Source of the DNA: an uncultured Candidatus Saccharibacteria bacterium
GTDB taxonomy: Bacteria > Patescibacteriota > UBA1384 > CAILIB01 > JAUSJZ01
NCBI GenBank assembly: GCA_964421635.1
Contig: CAYQWZ010000007.1
Span: forward strand, 1 to 61,131
Length of the DNA: 61,131 bases
Reading direction: 5' to 3'
Shown here: positions 3,570 to 61,131 of the stretch, piece by piece
Numbering within the stretch: position 1 is the stretch's first letter
Layout: every line of letters starts with the position of its first letter
Notes under the pieces: generated by a model
Seen by the model: only the letters and a program-made list of their open reading frames with translations
What the model was told of the DNA's origin: nothing
Databases searched by the model: none
Program-made: the position numbers and the translations under genes

Positions 3570-5591
3570 TCAAGACATTTCTTCGCAGACTTGAGCTATC
3601 GCCTGACTCACATTTACACCGTTATCTATTCTCCTTCTTATTTCTGGCCATACTTCTCTCGCTAAAAAAAGATCGTTCTGTTGAATTTGATCCATATGAA
3701 TTAATCCCAACTGTTGTAACTCAGCTAAGGAATATAAATCTAACCCATGAATATATGCTAAATCTTCAACACCATTTTCTTTCATAGCATTAAGTAGAAA
3801 TTCTTGTTCAGCATATTTCAGTTGATCTGTGTTAGTAATATAACCACTATTATCATTTATATCTACGCCACCTCTAAATATTCTCATTACTCTTTCGTAT
3901 ACATAGTCAACCGCATCCTGATATTGCTCACTATCTTCTATTAATTCCGCTATCGTCTTACCATAAGTTCTTCTGGAATATGCTTCTAAAAAAACCATAA
4001 AACAATCTTTAAAAGTTCCACCTCTCTGTTTTTCTCGTATTGCAATATAATAATATGGTTCTGCATCTCTAGTCACGCCGACCATAGATTCTCTAGCTTC
4101 ACTCTCTATTCCCATTGCACCGGCCTCAGCTAATATACTACTCCTGCCCGATTTTATATCAGAATTAACCCTCAAACCTGTCGACATTATATTTGCCTTA
4201 TTCTGATATTGAATCATATGAGTAACTTCGTGCTCTATAACTCCTAATACATCAATTAATCCTCGTTCTAAAGATGCGGGTATCTTAACAACTTTATCGC
4301 GATCACTCACAATAAATGTTTTCCTTGATTTATCAATTAAGCTACTCCACGGTTTTTCCACTTGATCATAACCATAATGTCTAATCACCAAATCTACCAA
4401 CATTTGTACTTCGTTTGGACCAATTAATTCTTGATTATAAAGTTCATAAGCCTCAGATGATTGTTGACCCTCTTGCTCAATGGCTTCATCTAACTTCTCT
4501 TCTGTTTGCTCAGTTATTTCTCGATAATCTCCAGTTTGAGCATCTATGCCAATTCCTTTTAAAAACCTATCAATTCTGTTTAAAGTTTTTGGTGTATTCT
4601 CTGTATTAAATCTCGGGTTTGGTACACTTTTTCTACTAGATCTCGAGGGTTTATGACGACCAGTCACGGCCTTTAAAGCAACAAGCTCTTCTTCCCCACC
4701 CGCTTGTTCAAGCATGCTCCCAAATTGGTAATAAAAAGCTATTCGCTCATTTATTCTTCGTCTATATAGATCAACTACTATACTTTTTGCCATTTCTAAA
4801 CCTTCTTCTCCCAATCCATCTTGCATAACTTTTAATTCTGTTTTCATAGCGCGAATTCTAGTAGCCATTTCAGCTAAAAGCTCTGGTTTGACTACTCGTT
4901 GAATTCGAGAAGGATTTTGCACAGCAGATATATCTCCTTTTCTTTGTTGTAACTGAGAGGTAAATTTCTTTTGAGCAATAGTATCACTAAACACTTTAAT
5001 AGCCTCCAACATTCTCGGACCAATGGCATCTAATTCAACTTCATATAGCAAAGTAGTCAATTCCTCATTATTTTGCGGCACTTGATCTGTCTGAGATTCT
5101 GGTTTGTAAAAAACTATTTTGCCTACTTCTTTGCTGAGCTCGGGTAATTCTGCGCCATTTTCTATGTAATCACGGAAGCTCTCTTCGCTCGAACAAATGG
5201 TCTGTAAATCAATAATCAAACTACTATAAAGCGCCTCAACCTGTTTTTTTCCTTTAATGCTTTCTGTTAAGATTCCCAATTCTTCTGTTATACCTTCTAC
5301 AAGAGTTCTTAATCCAAGATCTTTATAAAGTAATAAGACCAATCTTCTTCCCTCTTCTTCCTGAAAAGCTTCTGTGTAAACCTCATGTATTTCCACTTGA
5401 GTGTCAGTAATACCATGAAGTTGTTCAAAAAGAGGTCCTTCAAATTCTCTAAGCTGCTCCAATTCTTCAGGAGTAATTATTGGCTCAATCTCACCCGAAA
5501 AAACTCTTTCAGGGTCTCTTACTAATTCTGATGGTCTTAAAGGGTAAATATGACCCGAGCCTTTTTCTGGGTTTGACACAGAGATAATCAT
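3570..5591 (-). CDS. zinc metallopeptidase, DUF1704 / Tyr-Phe carboxypeptidase (MATCAP)-like C-terminal half
   Basis: HEVTHM (HExxH) followed by ILAEAGAMGIE, which resembles the QEGLA motif region of the DUF1704 family. Lies next to ATP-grasp ligases, as that family often does. The N-terminal half is unassigned. Confidence 0.55.
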   Translation of the reverse strand: MIISVSNPEKGSGHIYPLRPSELVRDPERVFSGEIEPIITPEELEQLREFEGPLFEQLHGITDTQVEIHEVYTEAFQEEEGRRLVLLLYKDLGLRTLVEGITEELGILTESIKGKKQVEALYSSLIIDLQTICSSEESFRDYIENGAELPELSKEVGKIVFYKPESQTDQVPQNNEELTTLLYEVELDAIGPRMLEAIKVFSDTIAQKKFTSQLQQRKGDISAVQNPSRIQRVVKPELLAEMATRIRAMKTELKVMQDGLGEEGLEMAKSIVVDLYRRRINERIAFYYQFGSMLEQAGGEEELVALKAVTGRHKPSRSSRKSVPNPRFNTENTPKTLNRIDRFLKGIGIDAQTGDYREITEQTEEKLDEAIEQEGQQSSEAYELYNQELIGPNEVQMLVDLVIRHYGYDQVEKPWSSLIDKSRKTFIVSDRDKVVKIPASLERGLIDVLGVIEHEVTHMIQYQNKANIMSTGLRVNSDIKSGRSSILAEAGAMGIESEARESMVGVTRDAEPYYYIAIREKQRGGTFKDCFMVFLEAYSRRTYGKTIAELIEDSEQYQDAVDYVYERVMRIFRGGVDINDNSGYITNTDQLKYAEQEFLLNAMKENGVEDLAYIHGLDLYSLAELQQLGLIHMDQIQQNDLFLAREVWPEIRRRIDNGVNVSQAIAQVCEEMS

Positions 5592-14521: not shown

Positions 14522-14552
14522 AATACTAGTATAGGTGAAAGATTACTTTTGC

Positions 14553-14586
14553 CAAAGAAAACAGGCTCCCCACGAGGGGAGCCTGT
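14553..14586 (-). terminator. intrinsic terminator of the ssrA-like transcript
   Basis: Minus strand ACAGGCTCCCC-TCGT-GGGGAGCCTGT followed by TTTTCTTT. Confidence 0.75.
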
Positions 14587-14716
14587 CGTGGCGCTAGACG
14601 CAGCGGTTCTGCATCCAGTTGCTCAGGCTTTTAACCCGAGTCTATTCCGATGCCGCGGGTGGAACGACATCGGAACTTGGTTTCGTTTGGAGCCCCCTTT
14701 GCGAAGGCGCTATAGA

Positions 14717-14812
14717 TGGAGGTGGCGGCCTGCCTGCCGGCAGGCAGGGAATTGAACCCGCGTCCGAAAGCATGTGAGTTGAGAATCACTTTCGTCGACA
14801 CCATACACCCCC
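14717..14812 (-). ncRNA. tmRNA-like tRNA-like domain (TLD) only, interrupted by a 20-nt palindrome
   Basis: Minus strand reads GGGGGTG-TATGGTGTCGAC-GAAAG...CTTTC-GGAC-GCGGG-TTCAATT-C[insert]CCGC-CACCTCC-A. It has G3:U70, A73, and the tmRNA-type D-loop analogue and T arm. There is no pseudoknot or tag region between the P2a strands. Confidence 0.6.
14729..14748. repeat. 20-nt perfect palindrome CCTGCCTGCCGGCAGGCAGG, copy 1 (in the T stem of the ssrA-like gene)
   Basis: Identical to 57647-57666. Deleting exactly these 20 nt restores GCGGG-TTCAATT-CCCGC. Confidence 0.9.
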
Positions 14813-14826
14813 CTTATGACTCCTTC

Positions 14827-14854
14827 AAAATAGCAGATTGAGCCAATTTGTCAA
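14827..14854 (-). promoter_or_regulatory. sigma70-like promoter of the ssrA-like gene
   Basis: Minus strand TTGACA-16 nt-TATTTT, ending about 14 nt upstream of the GGGGGTG 5' end. Confidence 0.45.
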
Positions 14855-14892: not shown

Positions 14893-15144
14893 CTAATTCG
14901 GCAAATGTTGCTGATACTCCGCTGGCACCTGCGCCTTCTGCTCATCCGTTAAATTAATCCGAGAGGTCGGAATTAGATTCTGAATGTAATTCGACATCTC
15001 CCCCGTCTTATACGCCTGATACAGCTGCCAAGTAACAAACAACGATAAAATTCCAATAATCAGCCACACAATATGCGAAACTAATCTGACACTTTTAATT
15101 GCCTTATCTAAGAAGGATTCATACACCACTGGTTCTTGAGCCAT
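14893..15144 (-). CDS. small membrane protein
   Basis: 83 aa with one central TM helix (VWLIIGILSLFVTWQLY). Confidence 0.4.
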   Translation of the reverse strand: MAQEPVVYESFLDKAIKSVRLVSHIVWLIIGILSLFVTWQLYQAYKTGEMSNYIQNLIPTSRINLTDEQKAQVPAEYQQHLPN

Positions 15145-15430: not shown

Positions 15431-16122
15431 GCGACAAACTGTACAGTGAACGTTTCAGTATAGCGCTTATCATGGCTGCCCGTGCGGCTGAGGTAGTCGC
15501 TAGGCAACTGATCGCCGAGTTCCCCAGTTTCAAAGGGATCTGGAGTCTCCCCTACCAGGTAGACGAGATCGGCAACGAGCTGAACTTGCGGTTCAACGGT
15601 GCCAATTTCATTGGTTTGACCTGGTGGGAGTTCCGTTATCGCGGTTCGATCCGGGTGACCATCGGTATCGCTAACCTGATGATGCTTCCTCGATGGTCCG
15701 GGTACAACTCTCCGGGTCCATGCAAGAGAGCCGTTGTAGGGTTTAAGGTCCAGATCGCCGACCAGGCGGTCATCGACCTTGACGCTCAAGGGCTCTTCAG
15801 ACGGGTCGCTGGCATCTGGGACGGAAAGAGTATTCCGACAGTAGTTGATCCTGTCCTGTTCAAGGGAAACGTCTACGTCGTTCCCTCGTGGGCTTACGGC
15901 CCGCGCGTCAGGCTGGATACCGAGGACGAACTCGACCTGATGAAGGAAATCTGCGGAGTCGAAGCCTTCCCCTTCGACCGGCTCAGCGCTGAGTCGTTGT
16001 GGGAAGCGGCGAGGCAGGCGCGAGAGCGCTGCGTCGAGCGGCGCGCCGAGTGGGAGGCGGCCGAGACGGCAAGGCGAGCGCGCGGCTGGGGCGCTGATGT
16101 CGCCTTCGAAGAAGAGGAGTAA
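15427..16122 (+). CDS. hypothetical protein (GC-rich)
   Basis: 231-aa ORF with GGAGG upstream and an E/R/A-rich C-terminal tail; no motif recognised. Confidence 0.55.
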   Translation: MSDKLYSERFSIALIMAARAAEVVARQLIAEFPSFKGIWSLPYQVDEIGNELNLRFNGANFIGLTWWEFRYRGSIRVTIGIANLMMLPRWSGYNSPGPCKRAVVGFKVQIADQAVIDLDAQGLFRRVAGIWDGKSIPTVVDPVLFKGNVYVVPSWAYGPRVRLDTEDELDLMKEICGVEAFPFDRLSAESLWEAARQARERCVERRAEWEAAETARRARGWGADVAFEEEE

Positions 16123-16309
16123 TACAGGAGGTCCGGGCTCGGCCCGGATCTCCCATCCTACCTCGGTTGAACCACGAACTAATGGTCCAACTGAGATAGG
16201 GTGAATAGCCCAACCTTACGACGGATAGCGCGGGGTAGCTACCGCTTCTATCTGTCATTTGAACAACTAAACGGCCTGAGAAGGCCTGCCTGAGAAAGGC
16301 AACAAGATC

Positions 16310-16609
16310 ATGCTCACCTGTTTGGACGCATTGCGTGAGGGCGCCGATGTTCTCGGCGCCCCCAGCCCCATCAACGCCGAGGCGTGCGCCCGACTGGCCG
16401 AAAGGCTGGAAGAGGCGTTCGACCGAAAGCAGGTCATCATCGGTCGCATCGACGATGCCGACCACCTCGGCTCAGTCAAGCTGATCGACACGAACTGCGT
16501 CAACGTTGACGTGGTCAGAGTCGATAAGCAGGGCCGCGAGCAGGGCGGAGCCATGTCCATCGCGGCCCGCCTGTTCAGCATCAGCGCCACGGTGCCGGCC
16601 GCCGTCTAG
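16310..16609 (+). CDS. hypothetical protein (GC-rich)
   Basis: 99-aa ORF on the same strand as its neighbours, followed by a terminator; no motif. Confidence 0.4.
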   Translation: MLTCLDALREGADVLGAPSPINAEACARLAERLEEAFDRKQVIIGRIDDADHLGSVKLIDTNCVNVDVVRVDKQGREQGGAMSIAARLFSISATVPAAV

Positions 16610-16681
16610 GCGCGCCGGCTCGACGACCCAAAAGCACCAAGGAGGTGCCGAAATGTTGTAGCTAGACTACGACAACCAACG

Positions 16682-16709
16682 GACCCGCCGCCAGGCGGGT
16701 CTTTGTTTT
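16682..16709 (+). terminator. intrinsic terminator
   Basis: gacccgcc-gcca-ggcgggtc followed by TTTGTTTT. Confidence 0.75.
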
Positions 16710-16874
16710 AATAAAAAAGTTATCAACTTGACTTATATCCTTTTTCGTTATATACAGATTGGGAAGGGTGTGTTGATCGTCGTCCTGATACCTACTCGTC
16801 CGATAATACCGATCAGCACACTTAGTCACTCGATCCTCGAGAGGTAGCACCCGCACGCTGCCTCTCTTTTTTTA

Positions 16875-16903
16875 TTGACACTAACAATCCTTTCTGATAA
16901 ATT
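16875..16903 (+). promoter_or_regulatory. sigma70-like promoter
   Basis: TTGACA-17 nt-TAAATT. The track ORF 'start' at 16875 is the -35 box itself. Confidence 0.5.
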
Positions 16904-16937
16904 AGTCTTTGTCGTGCAAAAAAGGAAGGAGCGTGAT

Positions 16938-17150
16938 TTGAGCAACGAAACAGTATACGCGCGTCACACTCGTACAGGTGAAGGCTGGCTAGAGAAGGAT
17001 GGTCAGATGCATAGTTGTATTGACGGTCGACCAACAGGTAGATCGTTGAGACAGATGCAAGCTGACCCCAACATCGGCCGCCATCTGGAGGTCTGTGACC
17101 CACCCCCCAACACCCTCGAGCTCTTTTCAGAAGCGCTCGCTCGGGTCTGA
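16938..17150 (+). CDS. small hypothetical protein (GC-rich)
   Basis: In-frame TTG lies 7 nt after AAGGAAGGAG and downstream of the promoter; no motif. Confidence 0.35.
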   Translation: MSNETVYARHTRTGEGWLEKDGQMHSCIDGRPTGRSLRQMQADPNIGRHLEVCDPPPNTLELFSEALARV

Positions 17151-17435
17151 CAACGACACACCTCAACGCTTCGGCTTTCAGTCGGGCGTTTTTTAATACA
17201 AAAAACCAATCGTCGTGGTGACATCCTGTTAGCTAAGTGGGTGGTCGCATTCAGAGGGCGAGCCGAGTCGATTCCCCCATCAGATATTGACCTCCCGTCG
17301 CAAATAGAATTGATAACTCACATATGACGATTGGTAATAATATTGTAGCAGATCTTCATTAAAAATAGATTAACAATTGTCCACCGAAAAAAACTGCCTT
17401 TTTCCCTCTCTCCTGCTATACTGAAAGGCAGAAAT

Positions 17436-19691
17436 ATGGATTCAAGCAAGCTAATTCCTCGCTTTGCTATTGTTGCCAGTACACAAAAACTGGTTGACCG
17501 TTTTTTGTTTACCGGCTCACAACCAACAAATCCTACTAAAAAGCTCAACTTGCTTTACGCCGTTGAAGTAACCCGCCCTTGGTTCCCCTCTTCTCGTTTA
17601 GTCCCCACTATTACCAATGTACTGTCTGAGCGCTTTAATACCTTGGCTAAATCTTCTAATCCGCTTAAAAGCTTCGAGGCTACTATCAAAAACATAAACG
17701 AAGAGCTCTACGCTATTACTGAACAGGGCGAAACAGATTGGCTCGGGCACTTAAACGCACTCTTAATTTTAGTCGATGGCAACGAAATTCACATCTCACA
17801 GACTGGCACCGCTCAGGCTTATTTATTTCGAGCTAGAAAAATTAGCCAGGTAACTGAAACATCAGTGGGCGATTCGGAGCCTCATCCTTTAAGCACTTTC
17901 TCGAACATTATTTCGGGCCAGCTAGCAGAGGGTGATCGTATGGTTTTCGCTAATCAAGATTTATTCTCAATAATTTCGCTAGATCAAATTCGGGGTGCAG
18001 TTAGCGAACAAACCCCATTTTTAGCCGCCAATCAAATAGTTAAATCTACTAAGCGCTCTAAAATAACCTCTATTTCCGCCATTATTTTAGCCATTGAAAA
18101 CGCCGCTACTTGGGAAACCGCCGGCGAGGAACCATTCGTCATTAACTTGGAAGAGACGGTGCAAGGATGGCATAAAATTGTTTGGAAAAATACTAAGCCA
18201 ATATTAAAGAAAGCCAGAAGTATTAGTAAAAAAGCTTGGAAGGCAAGTGTAGTTGGGGCTAAAAAAGCTCACAGTAAGTGGCAAGAAAGCTACGGACCAA
18301 AAACCCAATCGGCCCTAAAGTCTGGGGCTCGGTCTATTTCTCATTACGCTGCCAAAGCAAAAGGCTATACCAAAGATAAATTTTCAGACAAATCTGTTCA
18401 AGGCAAAACCCTGCAATCTTTCGTTAAAGCTGAGCAATGGTTGACTGACTTATTAAAACCTCTTAAAAAATCTGCCGCACCAATTTTGAAGAAATTAAAC
18501 CAAGTCGACAGAAAGCTAGGAGGATTGATTAAAAAACTCAGCCCTTATGTTACAGGGAAAAATTTTCGTTATGTTTTAATTTCAGCCGCTATTTTATTTG
18601 TGGCTATTACCGCCATTACGGTTCGTAATCGTCACAGCATTCAGGTAATCGCCAATACTCAATCAGAAAATTTGAGGCTTTTAGAAGAAACTAATTTGCT
18701 GGCTGGGCGCACAGATGAAGCTATTAAATTAAAGCAAACCATTGAAGCCCAAAAATTATTAGCTCAGGCAGAAGAGAAATTGAATCAGGTTAATCCTACT
18801 AACTCAGATGAAGAGACACGCAAAGACTCCCTTTTACAAATTATTCAAGAAAAAGGAGATAAACTAACTAACACTCAAAGAGTAAATGCGACTACTAGCT
18901 ATAAAGCGCCTGAAAACACAGATATCATAGCAGTTTCAAATAGAGGAATTTACGCTCTCAATTCTAAAAGTAACGCCGGTCGATTCTTATCTCGAGATTT
19001 GGCCCAATCGGAAATTCAGTTCACACTACCCTCGGCCGATGATAAACCAATTAGCGCTTTTTATTCATCAGAGCTAGACTCCGTCTTTATTACCACAGCT
19101 AATAAAAAAGTATTCACTGCTCGTTTGGAGAACGACAGCATCACCATTTCGCAAAAAGAAAATCCTTTAGGAGATTTCGCCGACAGTACAGATATCGCCA
19201 CTTTCGGTACCAACCTGTATCTTCTAGATTCAAACAGTGGATTACTCTGGAAGTATCCGCCATCTGGGGATAACTTTAGTCGCGGCATCAACCAAGTTGA
19301 GCCAACAGATATTAACTTAAAGACGGCTATTGATATTGCTATAGACGGATATATTTATTCTTTACATAGTGACGGATCACTTAAAAAACTATTGCGAGGC
19401 AAGCCTGAATCAGACTTTTCTGTTGCTGATATGCCAGAAACTTCCTACTCTAGAAAACTAATAGCTCTATCTACCAACGAGAATATTGAATCAATCTATC
19501 TTTTCGACGCAGGGGATAGTAGTAAATCTATTCCAACTGCCAAGGTAATTGTGCTCAACAAAGACGGATCCTTCTTAAAACAAATCGCTATTGACGAACA
19601 GTTGTCTAATATTAAAGCTTGGCAGATGCAAGCTGACGGTTCGCGTTTTTGGATATTGAACAGCAATGAGATTGTTGAATATAAAATCTAA
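17436..19691 (+). CDS. membrane protein with N-terminal PP2C/SpoIIE-like fold region and C-terminal beta-rich (propeller-like) domain
   Basis: LNALLILVDGNEIHISQTGTAQAYLFRA ... GDRMVFANQDLF resembles the PP2C core. Central TM (YVLISAAILFVAITAITV). Repetitive beta-strand-like C-terminus. Confidence 0.5.
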   Translation: MDSSKLIPRFAIVASTQKLVDRFLFTGSQPTNPTKKLNLLYAVEVTRPWFPSSRLVPTITNVLSERFNTLAKSSNPLKSFEATIKNINEELYAITEQGETDWLGHLNALLILVDGNEIHISQTGTAQAYLFRARKISQVTETSVGDSEPHPLSTFSNIISGQLAEGDRMVFANQDLFSIISLDQIRGAVSEQTPFLAANQIVKSTKRSKITSISAIILAIENAATWETAGEEPFVINLEETVQGWHKIVWKNTKPILKKARSISKKAWKASVVGAKKAHSKWQESYGPKTQSALKSGARSISHYAAKAKGYTKDKFSDKSVQGKTLQSFVKAEQWLTDLLKPLKKSAAPILKKLNQVDRKLGGLIKKLSPYVTGKNFRYVLISAAILFVAITAITVRNRHSIQVIANTQSENLRLLEETNLLAGRTDEAIKLKQTIEAQKLLAQAEEKLNQVNPTNSDEETRKDSLLQIIQEKGDKLTNTQRVNATTSYKAPENTDIIAVSNRGIYALNSKSNAGRFLSRDLAQSEIQFTLPSADDKPISAFYSSELDSVFITTANKKVFTARLENDSITISQKENPLGDFADSTDIATFGTNLYLLDSNSGLLWKYPPSGDNFSRGINQVEPTDINLKTAIDIAIDGYIYSLHSDGSLKKLLRGKPESDFSVADMPETSYSRKLIALSTNENIESIYLFDAGDSSKSIPTAKVIVLNKDGSFLKQIAIDEQLSNIKAWQMQADGSRFWILNSNEIVEYKI

Positions 19692-57487: not shown

Positions 57488-57522
57488 AAAAGGTCAGGCA
57501 ACCTATGGCAGCCTGACCTTTT
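57488..57522. terminator. bidirectional hairpin terminator
   Basis: AAAAggtcaggc ... gcctgaccTTTT between the convergent GT-C-like gene and tRNA-Ile. Confidence 0.7.
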
Positions 57523-57598
57523 GGTGGGTGCGGATGGACTTGAACCATCGACCTCTACATTATCAGTGTAGTGCTCTAACCAGCTGAGCTACGCACCC
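57522..57598 (-). tRNA. tRNA-Ile (GAT), CCA encoded
   Basis: Minus strand GGGTGCG-TA-GCTC-AGCTGGTTA-GAGC-A-CTACA-CTGATAA-TGTAG-AGGTC-GATGG-TTCAAGT-CCATC-CGCACCC-A-CCA. Confidence 0.9.
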
Positions 57599-57629
57599 AA
57601 AATTTTCTTATTTTTTTATATTTGCGTAG

Positions 57630-57688
57630 TTATCAGTGTAGTGCTCCCTGCCTGCCGGCAGGCAGGTAACCAGCTGAGCTACGCACCC
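57630..57688 (-). pseudogene. duplicated 5' half of tRNA-Ile (positions 1-38) carrying the 20-nt palindrome in the D loop
   Basis: Identical to the intact gene from G1 through the anticodon loop, except for the insert between GGTTA and GAGC. Diverges immediately after CTGATAA. Confidence 0.7.
57647..57666. repeat. 20-nt perfect palindrome CCTGCCTGCCGGCAGGCAGG, copy 2
   Basis: Identical to 14729-14748. Removing it restores the tRNA-Ile D-loop sequence exactly. Confidence 0.9.
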
Positions 57689-57713
57689 CTAATACGCATT
57701 ATAGCTTAGCAAA

Positions 57714-58774
57714 TCAAATTCGACCTGTCCACAAAAACATCCGCATTTTTATCTTTAGCCTAAATGTATTAGCCCAAGCCGCTTGCGCATGATAAGAGCT
57801 TAACACTTGTTGTTTTTTGGGACCATTGGGCAGGTTTTTAACTTTCCAACGCCACTCGCTTATTGTGCGGCGACGCAATAAAACATACTCTGGCCGAACA
57901 ATAAAACCCACAAAATCAATGCCATCTGCTACCGGCCGAATAAGCTGTTTTTGGGGGTGAACATGCATCTGAAGTTGGGCAGCGACAAATTTAGTGATAG
58001 TACGACGGATAGTTTCCAGATATGAATAACTTTTGCCCAAAATCACAAAATCGTCCACATAACGAATATAGTACTTTATTTTTAGAGTATGCTTAATAAA
58101 TTGATCGAGCCGGTCCAGGTATACATTGGCGAAAAATTGGGATGTAAGATTGCCAATAGGCAAGCCTTTACCTTTGGCTACTGTAAACAGCGATTTATCC
58201 GCTGGCAATTGAGCAAAGAGACTAGGGCAACTTTGAATTTTGGGTGGGATATCGCGGGCACAGTCGTGAAAAATGATTGTTTTAGTTAACCATAAAATTT
58301 CGGCATTTTTAGTCTTTTTGGCTACTAAATTATACAAAATATATTGGTCAATGGAAGTGAAGAAGCTCTTAATATCCATTTGTAGATAATACGCGTCGTG
58401 GTGCCCCCTACTCTCTCTATCTCTCTCGATTTGGTTGGTGAATTGTTGCAAACGCCGCATAGCGTGGTGGGTGCCTTTGTTTTTACGACAGGCCCACGAA
58501 TCGTAGATAGATGGTGAACTACTCGATCACGAAAATCGGCGGCAAAGATTTCGCGTACTTTTGGTTTTCGGACAATAAAAGCAATTGAACGACCCGGCCG
58601 ATAGGTTCGATCGCGTAATTGCTTCTCCAAAGTAAGCAGGTTTTTTTCTAGATTTTCCGCAAACTGCAGATGATAAAACGACCGGCTTTTGCGTTTCCGA
58701 CAGTTAATATAGGCGCGGTATAAATTAGCAAAATCAAAATAGGTGGGTGACGAAATATGATCAGAAAGAGACAT
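57714..58774 (-). pseudogene. DGR-type reverse transcriptase, split by a frameshift with a short deletion near 58510
   Basis: The N-terminal frame reads MSLSDH...PKVREIFAADFRDRVVHHL. The second frame reads IYDSWACRKNKGTHHAMRRL ... LPIGNLTSQFFANVYL ... YIRYVDDFVILG (IGxxxSQ and YxDD). About 12 residues normally found between HH(A)L and (F/Y)DSYA are missing. Confidence 0.75.
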
Positions 58775-58787
58775 TTGTACCTTGTTG

Positions 58788-58915
58788 CCTGACACAGCGT
58801 ATGTAGTTAGTATTGGAATACTTGGTGTTGTTGTTCGTGTTGCCGTCATTCAGGTTCACATAGTACGCGTTTGTACTATTGTTGCTCGTGGCCGACCAAA
58901 AGTTGTTGGAGGGCT
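58788..58915 (-). repeat. DGR template repeat (TR)
   Basis: Lies directly upstream of the RT start. AAC/AAT-rich; conceptual reading is PSNNFWSATSNNSTNAYYVNLNDGNTNNNTKYSNTNYIRCVR. Homologous to 59463-59587. Confidence 0.7.
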
Positions 58916-59051
58916 AAATGCTACCGACTTCAATCACTCCACCAACCAGCCACGTCAGGCGTGGTAGGTTGATCTGAAACTATCCTCTCAATAATTGTCT
59001 GACCTGAGGGCGGTAGCCGTAACAAGGCAGATAGCATTCCCGATTATTAGC

Positions 59052-59426
59052 TTAAGCAAGATAATCGGCTCTTACACAAATGCCTTTTTCTGACCACTGA
59101 CACCATTTCTCAAATTGTTTTGATATATCTACTAATTGGGTAAAGAAATGTTGATAACTCTTCAAACTCATAACTTTTAAGTCTTTTAACATTCTCGCTT
59201 TGAATTTTACTTTTTCCACCAACATAAAACCGTCTTTTAGCAAAAGTGTTTTGTTTAGACTGCTATTGGCTTCAATAACCACATCTAGCATGGAGTTAAG
59301 TAATTGTTCTATTTGCATGGCCAACCCATATTTATAATCTTTAGGAAACCCTCTGGCAAGCTGAAAGAAATATATATTTAGGTCGTAGACGCTTTTATAA
59401 ATTGGCAAATGTTCGTAACGAGCCAT
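59052..59426 (-). CDS. avd: four-helix-bundle protein, DGR accessory variability determinant (Avd)-like
   Basis: 124 aa; MARYEHLPIYKSVYDLNIYFFQLARGFPKDYKYGLAMQIEQ pattern of the 23S-rRNA-IVS/Avd family. Sits between the target gene and TR. Confidence 0.75.
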   Translation of the reverse strand: MARYEHLPIYKSVYDLNIYFFQLARGFPKDYKYGLAMQIEQLLNSMLDVVIEANSSLNKTLLLKDGFMLVEKVKFKARMLKDLKVMSLKSYQHFFTQLVDISKQFEKWCQWSEKGICVRADYLA

Positions 59427-59459
59427 ACATAATAATTTAATAATTAAATAACCAAATTG

Positions 59460-61131
59460 TTACCTGACACAACGAACGTAGTCCGCAACCGTCATAGCGC
59501 TGTGGTTCGTGTAGCCACCACCTAAGTAGACGCCGTACGCACCCGTGCCACCGTTCTGCGTCAACGACCAGAAGTAGTAGGAGGGCTGGGTCAGATTCCA
59601 GTAAGCGCCGTCAATATAGGCTTGCTGAAGCTCTGTTTGGCTCGGCAGACGCCAACCATCACCCCGCTCAGAGCAGAGCTCGCTGGCAGTCTTACCACCC
59701 ACCGCCACGCTATTAGTATTGGTAGTAGAAGTAAAGGTAATAGTATCGTCACCCGTGCCGCTGGTTTTAGTAAGGGTACCACTCGCTTCAGGACTACCCG
59801 TACCCGTAGCGTATATATAACTACTGCTACTGTGGTCAATTGTCACAGTAAAAGTTTGGCCGTTATTGGTATAGGTGGCACCCGCCGAAGCGCTAGCTGA
59901 TGGTGAGAGATTAAACTTCATACTGCCGTCCCATGTCCATGTCGAACCACTAGAGGCGGCAAACTCCACCGTACCGGCGTTGTTTTTCAGGTAGTTGCTC
60001 CAAGTCAAACCGGTTCTGGGGTCGTAGCCGCCTCGCCCCGCTAGCGCGTCATCACCTGTCACTGGCGTGTCGTTGGCCGTCCAAGTTAGAGAGCAGTTAT
60101 CTGTTTCGTTCGCCGAGCCACTGCCAGCGTACCAGTCTTGCGTAGCGCAGGCGCCGGCCGGCGTTAGGTCGGTTACCGTGCCGCTGCCTGTAATTTGGCT
60201 GCCGTCATTGCTCCAGGCTACCTTGCTTGTCGCCACGTCGGCTGCGCTCGCTACTGTACCGGCTCCTGCTAAGGGATAGCTTGCCGAGGGGTACTCTCCT
60301 GTTAAACCAACTCCGAAAGCCGTTCCACTTTTGACTGTGCCAACGGAAAGATTAGTAGCGTTGTAGGTGCCGGAACTAGTGGCAGTGGTTAGTACAAAAC
60401 TTTGGTCTTCATCACCGTAGGTGTAGCCAACCACAGCATTGCCGGCAATACCGAAAATGGTTACTCCACTAACAATGTTGCCCGCGATAAGGTCGGTATC
60501 TACGACAGATAAGGTTGTAGCGGCGTAGTAGCCGGCTGCTACTGTTGTGCTACTTGCAGACAAAGTCTGGGTATCCATAGTTCCTGTAACAGAAGAGCCA
60601 TCTACCCAAGCCACTAGACCTGAGAGCAAATCACCGGCGGTAGCGGTACCGGTACTGGTATTAACCACATTGCTGTTGCCCACTACACCAAATATAGTTT
60701 TGCCAGAAAGAATGTTGCCTGTAACTAAGTCGGTGTCAACTGTTGCCAGAGTGGTAGCAGCGTAGTAACCAGCAGAGACGGTGTCGTTGGCAGCCGAGAG
60801 AGTATTAGTAGAGATAGTACCGGTAATTTCAGAACCATCTACCCAAGCCACTAGACCTGAGAGCAAATCACCCGCGGTCGCGGTACCGGTTGAAGTATTA
60901 ACCACATTTGAGTCACCCACTACTCCAAAGATGGTAGCACCACTTAAAATATTACCCGTAATAAGATCTGAATCCACCGCTGTTAGCGTAGTCGCGACGT
61001 AGTAACCAGCCGAGACTGTTGTGCTGTCTGCTGAAAGAGTGTTGGTAGAGATGGTGCCGGTAACGGCCGAGCCATCTACCCAGGCGATCTTGCCAGATAG
61101 CAGGTCACTGGCTGTAGCTGTTCCTGTTGAA
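59460..61131 (-). CDS. DGR target protein (5'-truncated by window end): tandem 79-aa repeats + C-terminal CLec/FGE-like VR domain
   Basis: The frame is open to the window edge; the track start at 60977 is an internal GTG. The C-terminus is ...GWRLPSQTELQQAYIDGAYWN...YVRCVR. Confidence 0.75.
   Translation of the reverse strand, partial: STGTATASDLLSGKIAWVDGSAVTGTISTNTLSADSTTVSAGYYVATTLTAVDSDLITGNILSGATIFGVVGDSNVVNTSTGTATAGDLLSGLVAWVDGSEITGTISTNTLSAANDTVSAGYYAATTLATVDTDLVTGNILSGKTIFGVVGNSNVVNTSTGTATAGDLLSGLVAWVDGSSVTGTMDTQTLSASSTTVAAGYYAATTLSVVDTDLIAGNIVSGVTIFGIAGNAVVGYTYGDEDQSFVLTTATSSGTYNATNLSVGTVKSGTAFGVGLTGEYPSASYPLAGAGTVASAADVATSKVAWSNDGSQITGSGTVTDLTPAGACATQDWYAGSGSANETDNCSLTWTANDTPVTGDDALAGRGGYDPRTGLTWSNYLKNNAGTVEFAASSGSTWTWDGSMKFNLSPSASASAGATYTNNGQTFTVTIDHSSSSYIYATGTGSPEASGTLTKTSGTGDDTITFTSTTNTNSVAVGGKTASELCSERGDGWRLPSQTELQQAYIDGAYWNLTQPSYYFWSLTQNGGTGAYGVYLGGGYTNHSAMTVADYVRCVR
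59463..59587 (-). repeat. DGR variable region (VR) at the 3' end of the target gene
   Basis: Encodes PSYYFWSLTQNGGTGAYGVYLGGGYTNHSAMTVADYVRCVR-stop. Aligns with TR apart from one codon indel. Confidence 0.7.
60504..61131 (-). repeat. in-frame tandem coding repeats, 237-nt (79-aa) period, at least 2.6 copies in the window
   Basis: Units are VD(S/T)DL(I/V)TGNILSG.TIFGVVG.SNVVNTSTGTATAGDLLSGLVAWVDGS..TGT..T.TLSA...TV.AGYYAATTL. Nearly identical nucleotide blocks occur at 60547-60765 and 60781-61002. Confidence 0.85.

Follow-up and report, generated by a model that had tools for sequence, protein, structure and literature searches.

Palindromic elements of Rickettsia (RPEs) are reported (Ogata et al. 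2000, 2002) to occur as in-frame insertions in protein genes and also in RNA genes, among them the gene for transfer-messenger RNA (tmRNA). The element compared with them here is a perfect 20-nt palindrome, CCTGCCTGCCGGCAGGCAGG, of which two exact copies (14729–14748 and 57647–57666) lie in a 61,131-nt contig of an uncultured Candidatus Saccharibacteria bacterium (GenBank assembly GCA_964421635.1, contig CAYQWZ010000007.1, positions 1 to 61,131; this whole stretch is hereafter called the window). Both kinds of element make in-frame palindromic inserts in conserved proteins and in tRNA-like RNA genes, and both are free of stop codons (the 20-mer in every frame) and encode nothing by themselves, whereas RPEs measure about 100–150 bp and are not known outside Rickettsia and the palindrome has 20 nt and is identical across many phyla. 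RPEs are not known to have a partner enzyme, while the 20-mer has a candidate partner gene. The best explanation overall, to which we give a probability of roughly 0.72, is that the palindrome is the cis element conserved in a family of tiny selfish cassettes composed of a GIY-YIG nuclease gene and tRNA sequence.

These cassettes resemble phage T4 SegB (PMC2330249, PMC13096335) in having a GIY-YIG gene among or beside tRNA genes, in selfish spread and in local duplication or amplification. SegB, however, has about 220 amino acids and a DNA-binding domain, whereas the cassette protein has about 80, consists of the nuclease domain only and belongs to the SLX1/UPF0213 branch, and Seg genes have neither the conserved palindrome nor the partial tRNA duplication of the cassettes. 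Dunin-Horkawicz et al. 2006 (PMC1564403) described the SLX1/UPF0213 branch as non-selfish and the bacterial SLX1-like proteins as vertically inherited repair factors; contrary to this published view, the GIY-YIG family of the cassettes looks selfish. Integrase islands in tRNA and tmRNA genes (bioRxiv 10.1101/2022.07.05.498093) share with the cassettes a partial and an intact tRNA that flank mobile DNA, but they are 9–120 kb long, encode an integrase and in most cases repeat the tRNA's 3′ part, while the cassettes span about 0.3 kb, have no integrase, usually duplicate the 5′ part and contain a palindrome that splits the partial copy. In the repetitive extragenic palindromic (REP)/REPIN-RAYT and IS200/IS605 systems, as with the 20-mer, one small enzyme gene goes with a short DNA that can form a hairpin, non-autonomous copies far outnumber that gene, and insertion is without target duplication and oriented by a fixed base. 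Those systems use HUH tyrosine transposases and imperfect, species-specific hairpins in hundreds of extragenic copies per genome, in contrast to a perfect palindrome with few copies per genome, a sequence shared across phyla and a GIY-YIG gene. The target hairpin of diversity-generating retroelements (DGRs; PMC3240598) has the same 8-bp G+C-rich stem and 4-nt loop, although DGR stems vary between elements, whereas the 20-mer is invariant, has the loop CCGG and does not lie beside a variable repeat in either window copy. No published description was found by full-text searches of the literature, among them searches with the 20-mer sequence and with the LPAGRQ peptide, and a tiny GIY-YIG gene wedged before tRNA genes in many phyla is apparently a widespread mobile element undescribed so far.

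Spread of the palindrome and the GIY-YIG/tRNA cassette

A scan of one genome per species, in a collection of 596 Gb, found at least 120 loci with the exact 20-mer, and 35 stretches of viral contigs bring the public loci to at least 155 (designated L with a number below). The hosts belong to many lineages of Patescibacteria and to Omnitrophota, Bacteroidota, Planctomycetota, Gamma- and Deltaproteobacteria, Bdellovibrionales, Thermodesulfovibrio and Chloroflexi, and a few cultured isolates and one complete long-read chromosome are among the exact 20-mer hosts listed. Many of the loci are in low-G+C genomes, and their flanks share no common homology. Variants with one or two mismatches occur near exact copies, so that the palindrome forms a decaying family. 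Target-site duplication was rejected: it was 0 nt at 73 of 127 sites and otherwise 1–2 nt, which is the level of chance, and the few 7-nt cases sit in tandem-repeat arrays. The idea that the 20-mer marks the ends of a larger transposon was rejected as well, half-sites at the 155 loci being nearly all degenerate whole palindromes and not bracketing pairs.

A short G+C-rich sequence that comes mostly from metagenome-assembled genomes might be a chance match, a REP-like repeat, or an assembly or adapter artefact, but we regard these explanations as refuted. A search of the window with up to three mismatches found no third copy, in agreement with the reading made earlier from the letters alone (the sequence-only reading), and 100 shuffles of the window gave zero matches. 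In the 596 Gb, about 0.5 chance matches would be expected (an estimate with equal base use) against more than 120 found. Its presence in isolates and in the complete long-read chromosome, its in-frame bias within genes and its fixed position in the cassettes likewise argue against chance or artefact. The region of copy 1 is 100% identical in contigs from other samples and assemblers (L156, L157), and Logan contigs from four lake-water runs are identical over it, with the insert present and without variants at the contig level; because independent samples and assemblers give identical contigs, the insert of copy 1 is not the assembly artefact that the sequence-only reading had named as a danger to its proposal. 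The other danger that it named, a generic REP-like repeat in arbitrary contexts, came true in part, as the 20-mer is widespread in such contexts, but each genome has few copies and the sequence does not change from phylum to phylum, unlike a REP. Only two copies in 61 kb, copies inside genes, cross-phylum identity and the lack of a recurrent transposase nearby do not fit REP/RAYT elements. A palindromic insertion at the DNA level, not attributable to chance, is supported.

Clustering of the open reading frames (ORFs) near palindrome sites revealed one small ORF that recurs just downstream of the palindrome. Its product of about 80 amino acids contains a GIY-YIG domain alone (Pfam PF01541, E about 1e-15), and the nearest solved structures are those of the UPF0213 proteins BH0048/EF2693, followed by SLX1. 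Among 80 metagenome loci fetched solely by similarity to this protein, the palindrome lies 11–83 nt upstream of the ORF at 54 (41 exact, 13 with one to four mismatches), and about seven further loci have variants that carry insertions or deletions, are nested or have a larger loop. At about 58 of the 80 loci, a tRNA gene in the same orientation starts 0–100 nt after the ORF. In most cassettes, the flanks of the palindrome are positions 1 to N of this downstream tRNA, then N+1 onwards, with N at 20–24 in most tRNAs, at 14–15 or 23–24 in tRNA-Leu and at 32 in tRNA-Arg(TCG). The complete cassette reads tRNA promoter, tRNA positions 1 to N, palindrome, tRNA from position N+1 (6–36 nt or more), GIY-YIG gene and intact tRNA, with the stop codon of the gene abutting tRNA position 1 and TATAAT preceding the first tRNA fragment. 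Insertion is precise and without target duplication, the geometry also of copy 2 in the window; nearly all nuclease-linked palindromes sit in tRNA loops, and an A stands directly before the palindrome in 22 of the 22 cassettes displayed. Cassettes also form tandem arrays (L164, L178, L219). A full-length upstream tRNA contains the palindrome in L186, and the order is mirrored in L182, where the tRNA and the gene precede a 3′ fragment whose T loop contains two palindromes.

The 36 nuclease proteins beside an exact palindrome have a median identity of 52% and come from loci of 32–69% G+C, and the 20-mer is identical throughout. For non-coding DNA, it is very unusual that a 20-mer should be unchanged between Patescibacteria, Omnitrophota, Bacteroidota, Planctomycetota, several groups of proteobacteria and phage contigs; since the neighbouring proteins have drifted to about 50% identity, it seems to be read base by base by something. 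As base-by-base reading alone explains identity over such distances, the palindrome is probably a site of the nuclease. The cassette proteins cluster by tRNA type, and this clustering, together with the tandem arrays, may be an indirect sign of homing of the Seg kind. Co-evolution of palindrome type with protein clade was looked for and not seen.

Some cassettes depart from the common form. Longer palindromes, such as CCCGCCCGAACGTACCGTTCGGTACGGGCGGG, occupy the same D-loop site ahead of related GIY-YIG genes in L231 and L235 (tRNA-Val), L205 (tRNA-Arg) and L240 (tRNA-Leu). At L060 (3720–4300), the palindrome and the GIY-YIG domain are fused in frame into the linker of an hsdS-like gene for type I restriction specificity, with a degenerate 21-nt palindrome copy 140 nt upstream in the same frame. 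In the viral contig L152 (about 830–1000), the intact tRNA after the cassette continues past the anticodon stem into a long, structured-looking insert, which may be an intron. At L010 (2942–3500), a longer GIY-YIG gene follows just after a DGR reverse transcriptase gene and is split by about 130 nt of inserted DNA, the ends of which are inverted (TTAAGGGGACTGTTTTC ... GAAAACAGTCCCTTAAG) as in a miniature transposon.

Two solo palindromes in the Saccharibacteria window

Both window copies are precise 20-nt insertions without target-site duplication, as the sequence-only reading had described them, and no flank homology links the two sites. A profile hidden Markov model of 73 family proteins, run over six frames, gave no hit better than E = 2 in the window; a remnant of the nuclease gene was likewise sought without success, and the spacers have no similarity to other loci. 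Both copies are accordingly solo derivatives. A phage origin of the window was considered and rejected, its comparison with a phage collection having given no match.

Copy 2 (57647–57666) reads on the minus strand GGGGTGCGTAGCTCAGCTGGTTA-palindrome-GAGCACTACACTGATAA, with an unambiguous insertion point. Without the 20 nt, the sequence equals positions 1–38 of the intact tRNA-Ile(GAT) gene (57522–57598, minus strand; ARAGORN, Rfam tRNA 76.4 bits), and the palindrome lies in the D loop of this 38-nt 5′ pseudo-copy, 31 nt upstream of the intact gene. On the minus strand, segment A (57667–57689) comprises tRNA-Ile positions 1–21 plus an extra G and ends in the D loop before the palindrome (93% identical to the intact gene, direct repeat D2), and segment B (57630–57646) follows right after the palindrome with positions 22–38 and ends in the anticodon loop (100% identical, direct repeat D6). 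An A+T-rich spacer of 31 nt (57599–57629, minus strand) then occupies the place where complete cassettes hold the GIY-YIG gene, in a stretch of about 250–290 nt, gene included. About 9 nt upstream of segment A, a TATAAT box resembling a −10 element was read from the sequence (57698–57703, minus strand); its placement is shared by other cassettes and it is probably the original tRNA promoter, although a promoter scan found no full two-hexamer promoter near it. A palindrome in a partial tRNA copy beside an intact copy is the geometry of loci L161–L236; a GIY-YIG gene between the partial and the intact tRNA is absent from the window. The simplest reading is that copy 2 looks like a tRNA-Ile cassette that lost its nuclease gene. 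No empty site could be compared, the neighbouring 518-amino-acid protein having no close orthologues (best 47% identical). The arrangement does not match an integrase island, with 31 nt between the partial and the intact tRNA-Ile and a repeat that is the 5′ part of the tRNA.

The sequence-only reading had placed copy 2 in the D loop of a 5′ tRNA-Ile copy from which excision restores the sequence, and this proved correct; its wider idea of insertion into a tRNA-shaped gene holds for the D-loop site, but the host is a dead pseudo-copy and not a working tRNA. It had also proposed that the insert could act at the RNA level, as an extra arm or mini-intron of a working tRNA or tmRNA. A hairpin borne in a loop would leave the remaining cloverleaf foldable, and an otherwise complete phage tRNA-Met (L145) does hold the palindrome in its variable loop. 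Copy 2 and most cassette copies, however, are in truncated fragments, unable to yield a tRNA, beside an intact insert-free copy, an intron that splices itself needs more than 20 nt, and the bulge-helix-bulge motif differs from a perfect hairpin; neither a functional tRNA host nor a ribozyme fold was found, the host of copy 2 being a 38-nt fragment. Furthermore, the same 20-mer is translated in frame in proteins, and a search for an RNA run holding the locus found none. Because copy 2 sits in a dead pseudo-copy, an RNA-level role is unnecessary and we give it very little credence.

Copy 2 begins 48 nt after the stop codon of a DGR reverse transcriptase, so that the palindrome might be the target-recognition hairpin or cruciform of a neighbouring DGR or a by-product of reverse transcription. 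Its G+C-rich stem of 8 bp and its 4-nt loop agree with the form published for such hairpins (PMC3240598), and reverse transcriptase or Avd genes are near the palindrome in L010, L038 and L125/L147; at L038, a one-mismatch variant lies 2 nt after a genuine variable repeat, in which 17 of 24 differences are at template adenines. Nevertheless, the variable repeat of the window ends near 59457, 1.8 kb from copy 2, and is not followed by a G+C-rich hairpin, no DGR is near copy 1, and a reverse transcriptase gene is present in only 4 of about 155 loci. The loop is CCGG against the published GRNA consensus (PMC3240598), and a position 4–34 bp after the variable repeat is found for the L038 variant only. 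The window DGR itself (57714–60977, minus strand) looks decayed: its reverse transcriptase is in two overlapping frames (58849–58325 and 58460–57714), and 25 of 45 differences between its variable and template repeats are at template adenines. A DGR origin was therefore rejected on position and loop sequence, with an association limited to 4 loci, and we hold it to be highly unlikely. The remaining parts of the window DGR, all on the minus strand, are the target gene (59460–60977), whose C terminus matches Pfam Lcl_C weakly and below threshold, Avd (59052–59426) and the template repeat (about 58780–58915). The genuine variable/template repeat pair of L038 (3167–3781) has an exact palindrome 160 nt beyond the one-mismatch version.

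Copy 1 (14729–14748) folds into an 8-bp stem with a CCGG loop (−13.9 kcal/mol) and reads on the minus strand GCGGGTTCAATTC-palindrome-CCGCCACCTCCA, in the wider context GGGGGTGTATGGTGTCGACGAAAGTG...TGCTTTCGGACGCGGGTTCAATTC-palindrome-CCGCCACCTCCA; its insertion point is ambiguous by 2 nt (CC). It interrupts, at the T loop and 3′ T stem, a tmRNA-like minigene of 99 nt (14714–14812, minus strand) that has the tRNA-like domain only. The minigene matches both ends of the Rfam tmRNA model RF00023 (positions 1–374) with 308 internal positions reduced to 14 nt and 21 extra nt in the T arm, and scores 43 bits, under the gathering score of 47. Once the 20 nt are removed, its fold shows an acceptor stem of 7 bp that includes G3:U70, a single hairpin and a T arm of 5 bp with a 7-nt loop, which bears out the earlier claim that excision restores the T arm of an ssrA-like gene; with the 20 nt retained, the T stem is reduced to 3 bp beside the new hairpin. 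The tRNA-like domain of a tmRNA (acceptor stem, G3:U70, T arm) is thus present, while the mRNA-like domain with tag frame and pseudoknots and an above-threshold score are lacking, and ARAGORN called no tmRNA with or without the insert. From its sequence, copy 1 looks like a palindrome that inserted solo into the T loop of a minigene derived from tmRNA, and it probably disables this minigene. T-loop palindromes are likewise found in 3′ tRNA fragments elsewhere (L029, L182).

A promoter-like site (14827–14854, minus strand; TTGACA-16-TATTTT with an upstream TG, a consensus match only, 10 of 12) ends about 15 nt upstream of the minigene and is placed to start transcription a few bases before it. 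The 3′ trailer (14545–14713, minus strand) includes a terminator-like hairpin at 14560–14587 (12-bp stem plus T run), about 125 nt downstream of the minigene; it has no Rfam match, GIY-YIG remnant or similarity to other palindrome loci, and no tag-like frame was seen in three frames read by eye. As a tmRNA reduced to its tRNA-like domain, the unit at 14545–14854 (minus strand) resembles the reduced tmRNAs of jakobid mitochondria. It is not conserved in the nearest relatives, which keep the flanking genes (an 83-amino-acid gene at 58% identity and a VTT/DedA gene at 62–79%) and have in place of the minigene a pyruvate kinase-like gene (Pfam PK) and a gene for 194 amino acids; with different genes between the same flanks, no clean empty site for copy 1 was shown. 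ORFs adjoining copy 1 have no Pfam domains. The segment 14813–17435 has 48–51% G+C against about 40% around it and ORFs without Pfam match, its only gene common to relatives is the 83-amino-acid gene (14893–15144), and its part at 16122–17436 has no called gene and no Rfam match.

Solo palindromes and the proposed movement of the cassette

Solo copies are in large excess, a GIY-YIG gene being found within 450 nt of 7 of 169 palindrome sites, and the pattern resembles that of an autonomous element with many non-autonomous copies. A tRNA gene lies within 400 nt of 10% of 167 sites, against 2.6% expected from the same loci, and about 15 sites fall within tRNA fragments, where the palindrome occupies a D, anticodon, variable or T loop. 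The link to tRNA-shaped genes asserted by the sequence-only reading therefore stands as an enrichment, with solo copies elsewhere too. In protein genes, the 20-mer reads through in frame, mostly as LPAGRQ, for example in FtsK (L013), GatB (L104), ribosomal protein S6 (L047) and the dTDP-glucose dehydratase RfbB (L021), and the extra residues fall in loops when aligned to solved GatB and RfbB structures.

It might be argued that some enzyme other than the GIY-YIG protein moves the palindrome as an independent miniature hairpin, which simply collects in DNA that is rich in hairpins and can be spared, for example in the dead tRNA copies beside the nuclease genes. The 162 sites of 169 (96%) that have no nuclease gene nearby are consistent with this, as are flanking stems of at least 6 bp, which put 12% of sites at the tips of unrelated hairpins against 2.7% of controls, 5–9-nt tandem repeats adjoining 10% of sites against 0.8% of controls, palindromes nested within palindromes (L018, L042, L185) and the other palindromes found at the same tRNA position in some cassettes. 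Passive accumulation, however, would not produce one exact sequence beside proteins that are only 52% identical. In two thirds of the loci, selected without regard to it, the palindrome has a fixed place 11–83 nt before the gene on the sense side of the tRNA; this and the constant A before the palindrome in the cassettes displayed also speak against the independent hairpin, and no other enzyme family recurred when neighbouring ORFs were clustered, DGR parts recurring in a few loci. An independent hairpin is thus improbable in our judgement, and the free-standing, tRNA-specific tiny element first proposed for the window is not supported, the palindrome being better understood as the tag of a GIY-YIG cassette that duplicates part of a tRNA. 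A universal hairpin-loop target was also considered and rejected, the enrichment being real but limited to 12–20% of sites.

Several points weigh against the palindrome as cis element of a selfish GIY-YIG/tRNA cassette. Besides the many sites without a nuclease gene, the query proteins came from palindrome sites, and the cassette figures (68%) describe that subfamily only. Some relatives have another palindrome or none at the same tRNA position (L205, L231, L235, L240), and these relatives have no protein clade of their own. The protein of about 80 residues has no DNA-binding domain, its partnership with the palindrome is deduced from their sequence association, and a different enzyme could move the palindrome. 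Under a simple homing model, moreover, the intact downstream tRNA would be a remaining target, and for copy 1 no intact tmRNA gene, gene remnant or empty site was demonstrated.

For the mode of movement of the cassette, we infer the following course. The GIY-YIG gene would ride in the leader of a tRNA and be transcribed from the tRNA promoter, with RNase P cleavage freeing the tRNA from the gene-bearing leader. Entry could take place by recombination inside conserved tRNA sequence, which would serve as portable homology between species and leave one intact and one partial tRNA copy: a circle or fragment carrying the gene and A-palindrome-B, with crossover in A, would give A-palindrome-B-gene-A-B-C, and a crossover on the opposite side would give the mirror form of L182. 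Such entry through tRNA sequence would explain the attachment of each protein lineage to a single type of tRNA. The site bound or cut by the structure-selective nuclease is probably the palindrome in hairpin or cruciform form; SLX1-type enzymes act on branched and hairpin DNA (PMC1564403). The palindrome would also cut the direct repeat into pieces too short to recombine the gene away. Breaks at the palindrome may start its copying into tRNA-like DNA, whether or not the gene is copied along with it, which would yield solo copies, and the copying may more rarely reach other hairpin-prone sites. A stronger form of this proposal, a two-part mobile system with a novel mechanism in which the nuclease-only, SLX1-like protein of about 80 amino acids mobilises the 20-bp perfect palindrome, which inserts precisely and with no target duplication after an A in DNA hairpin loops, with tRNA genes preferred, is tentative and rather less likely to be right than wrong.

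If the adjacent GIY-YIG nuclease is the reader of the palindrome, the large UPF0213/bacterial SLX1 family would gain a role; the structures solved for it, 1zg2 and 1ywl, were deposited as hypothetical proteins. The cassettes would then be a selfish gene that crosses phyla by using tRNA genes as universal homology, and would account for precise insertions of 7–8 residues in essential proteins as well as for broken tRNA-like genes. Should the two-part system be true, it would be the smallest known transposable unit, and the "ancestral, housekeeping" bacterial SLX1 branch would be a family of selfish elements. Enzyme and site are both small and could be useful as a compact site-specific DNA tool. 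The 20-mer also flags tRNA pseudo-copies that tRNA finders can miss or mis-call.

Some further arrangements were noted at and around palindrome sites. Solo palindromes often lie in or beside arrays of 7–8-nt tandem repeats (L101, L082, L121/L150, L142, L069, L058 and others), whose unit differs from locus to locus, with a 12-fold enrichment over control positions. At L050 (3400–3797), the palindrome is 26 nt upstream of a four-helix-bundle gene of TIGR02436, a family of 23S rRNA intervening-sequence proteins and Avd, and a second such gene is on its other side; these genes may be a second small-gene family linked to the palindrome. At L022, a repeat of about 70 nt at 5271 and 7279 ends once in the full palindrome and once in its left half only, which hints at breakage or exchange at the palindrome centre. 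In the window, the DGR target gene contains two tandem 237-nt units that are 70% identical (60439–60912). In the viral contig L154 (3916–4125), a 21-nt unit that consists of a two-mismatch variant and a C (CATGCCTACCGGCAGGCAGG plus C) is repeated head to tail, ten units in all.

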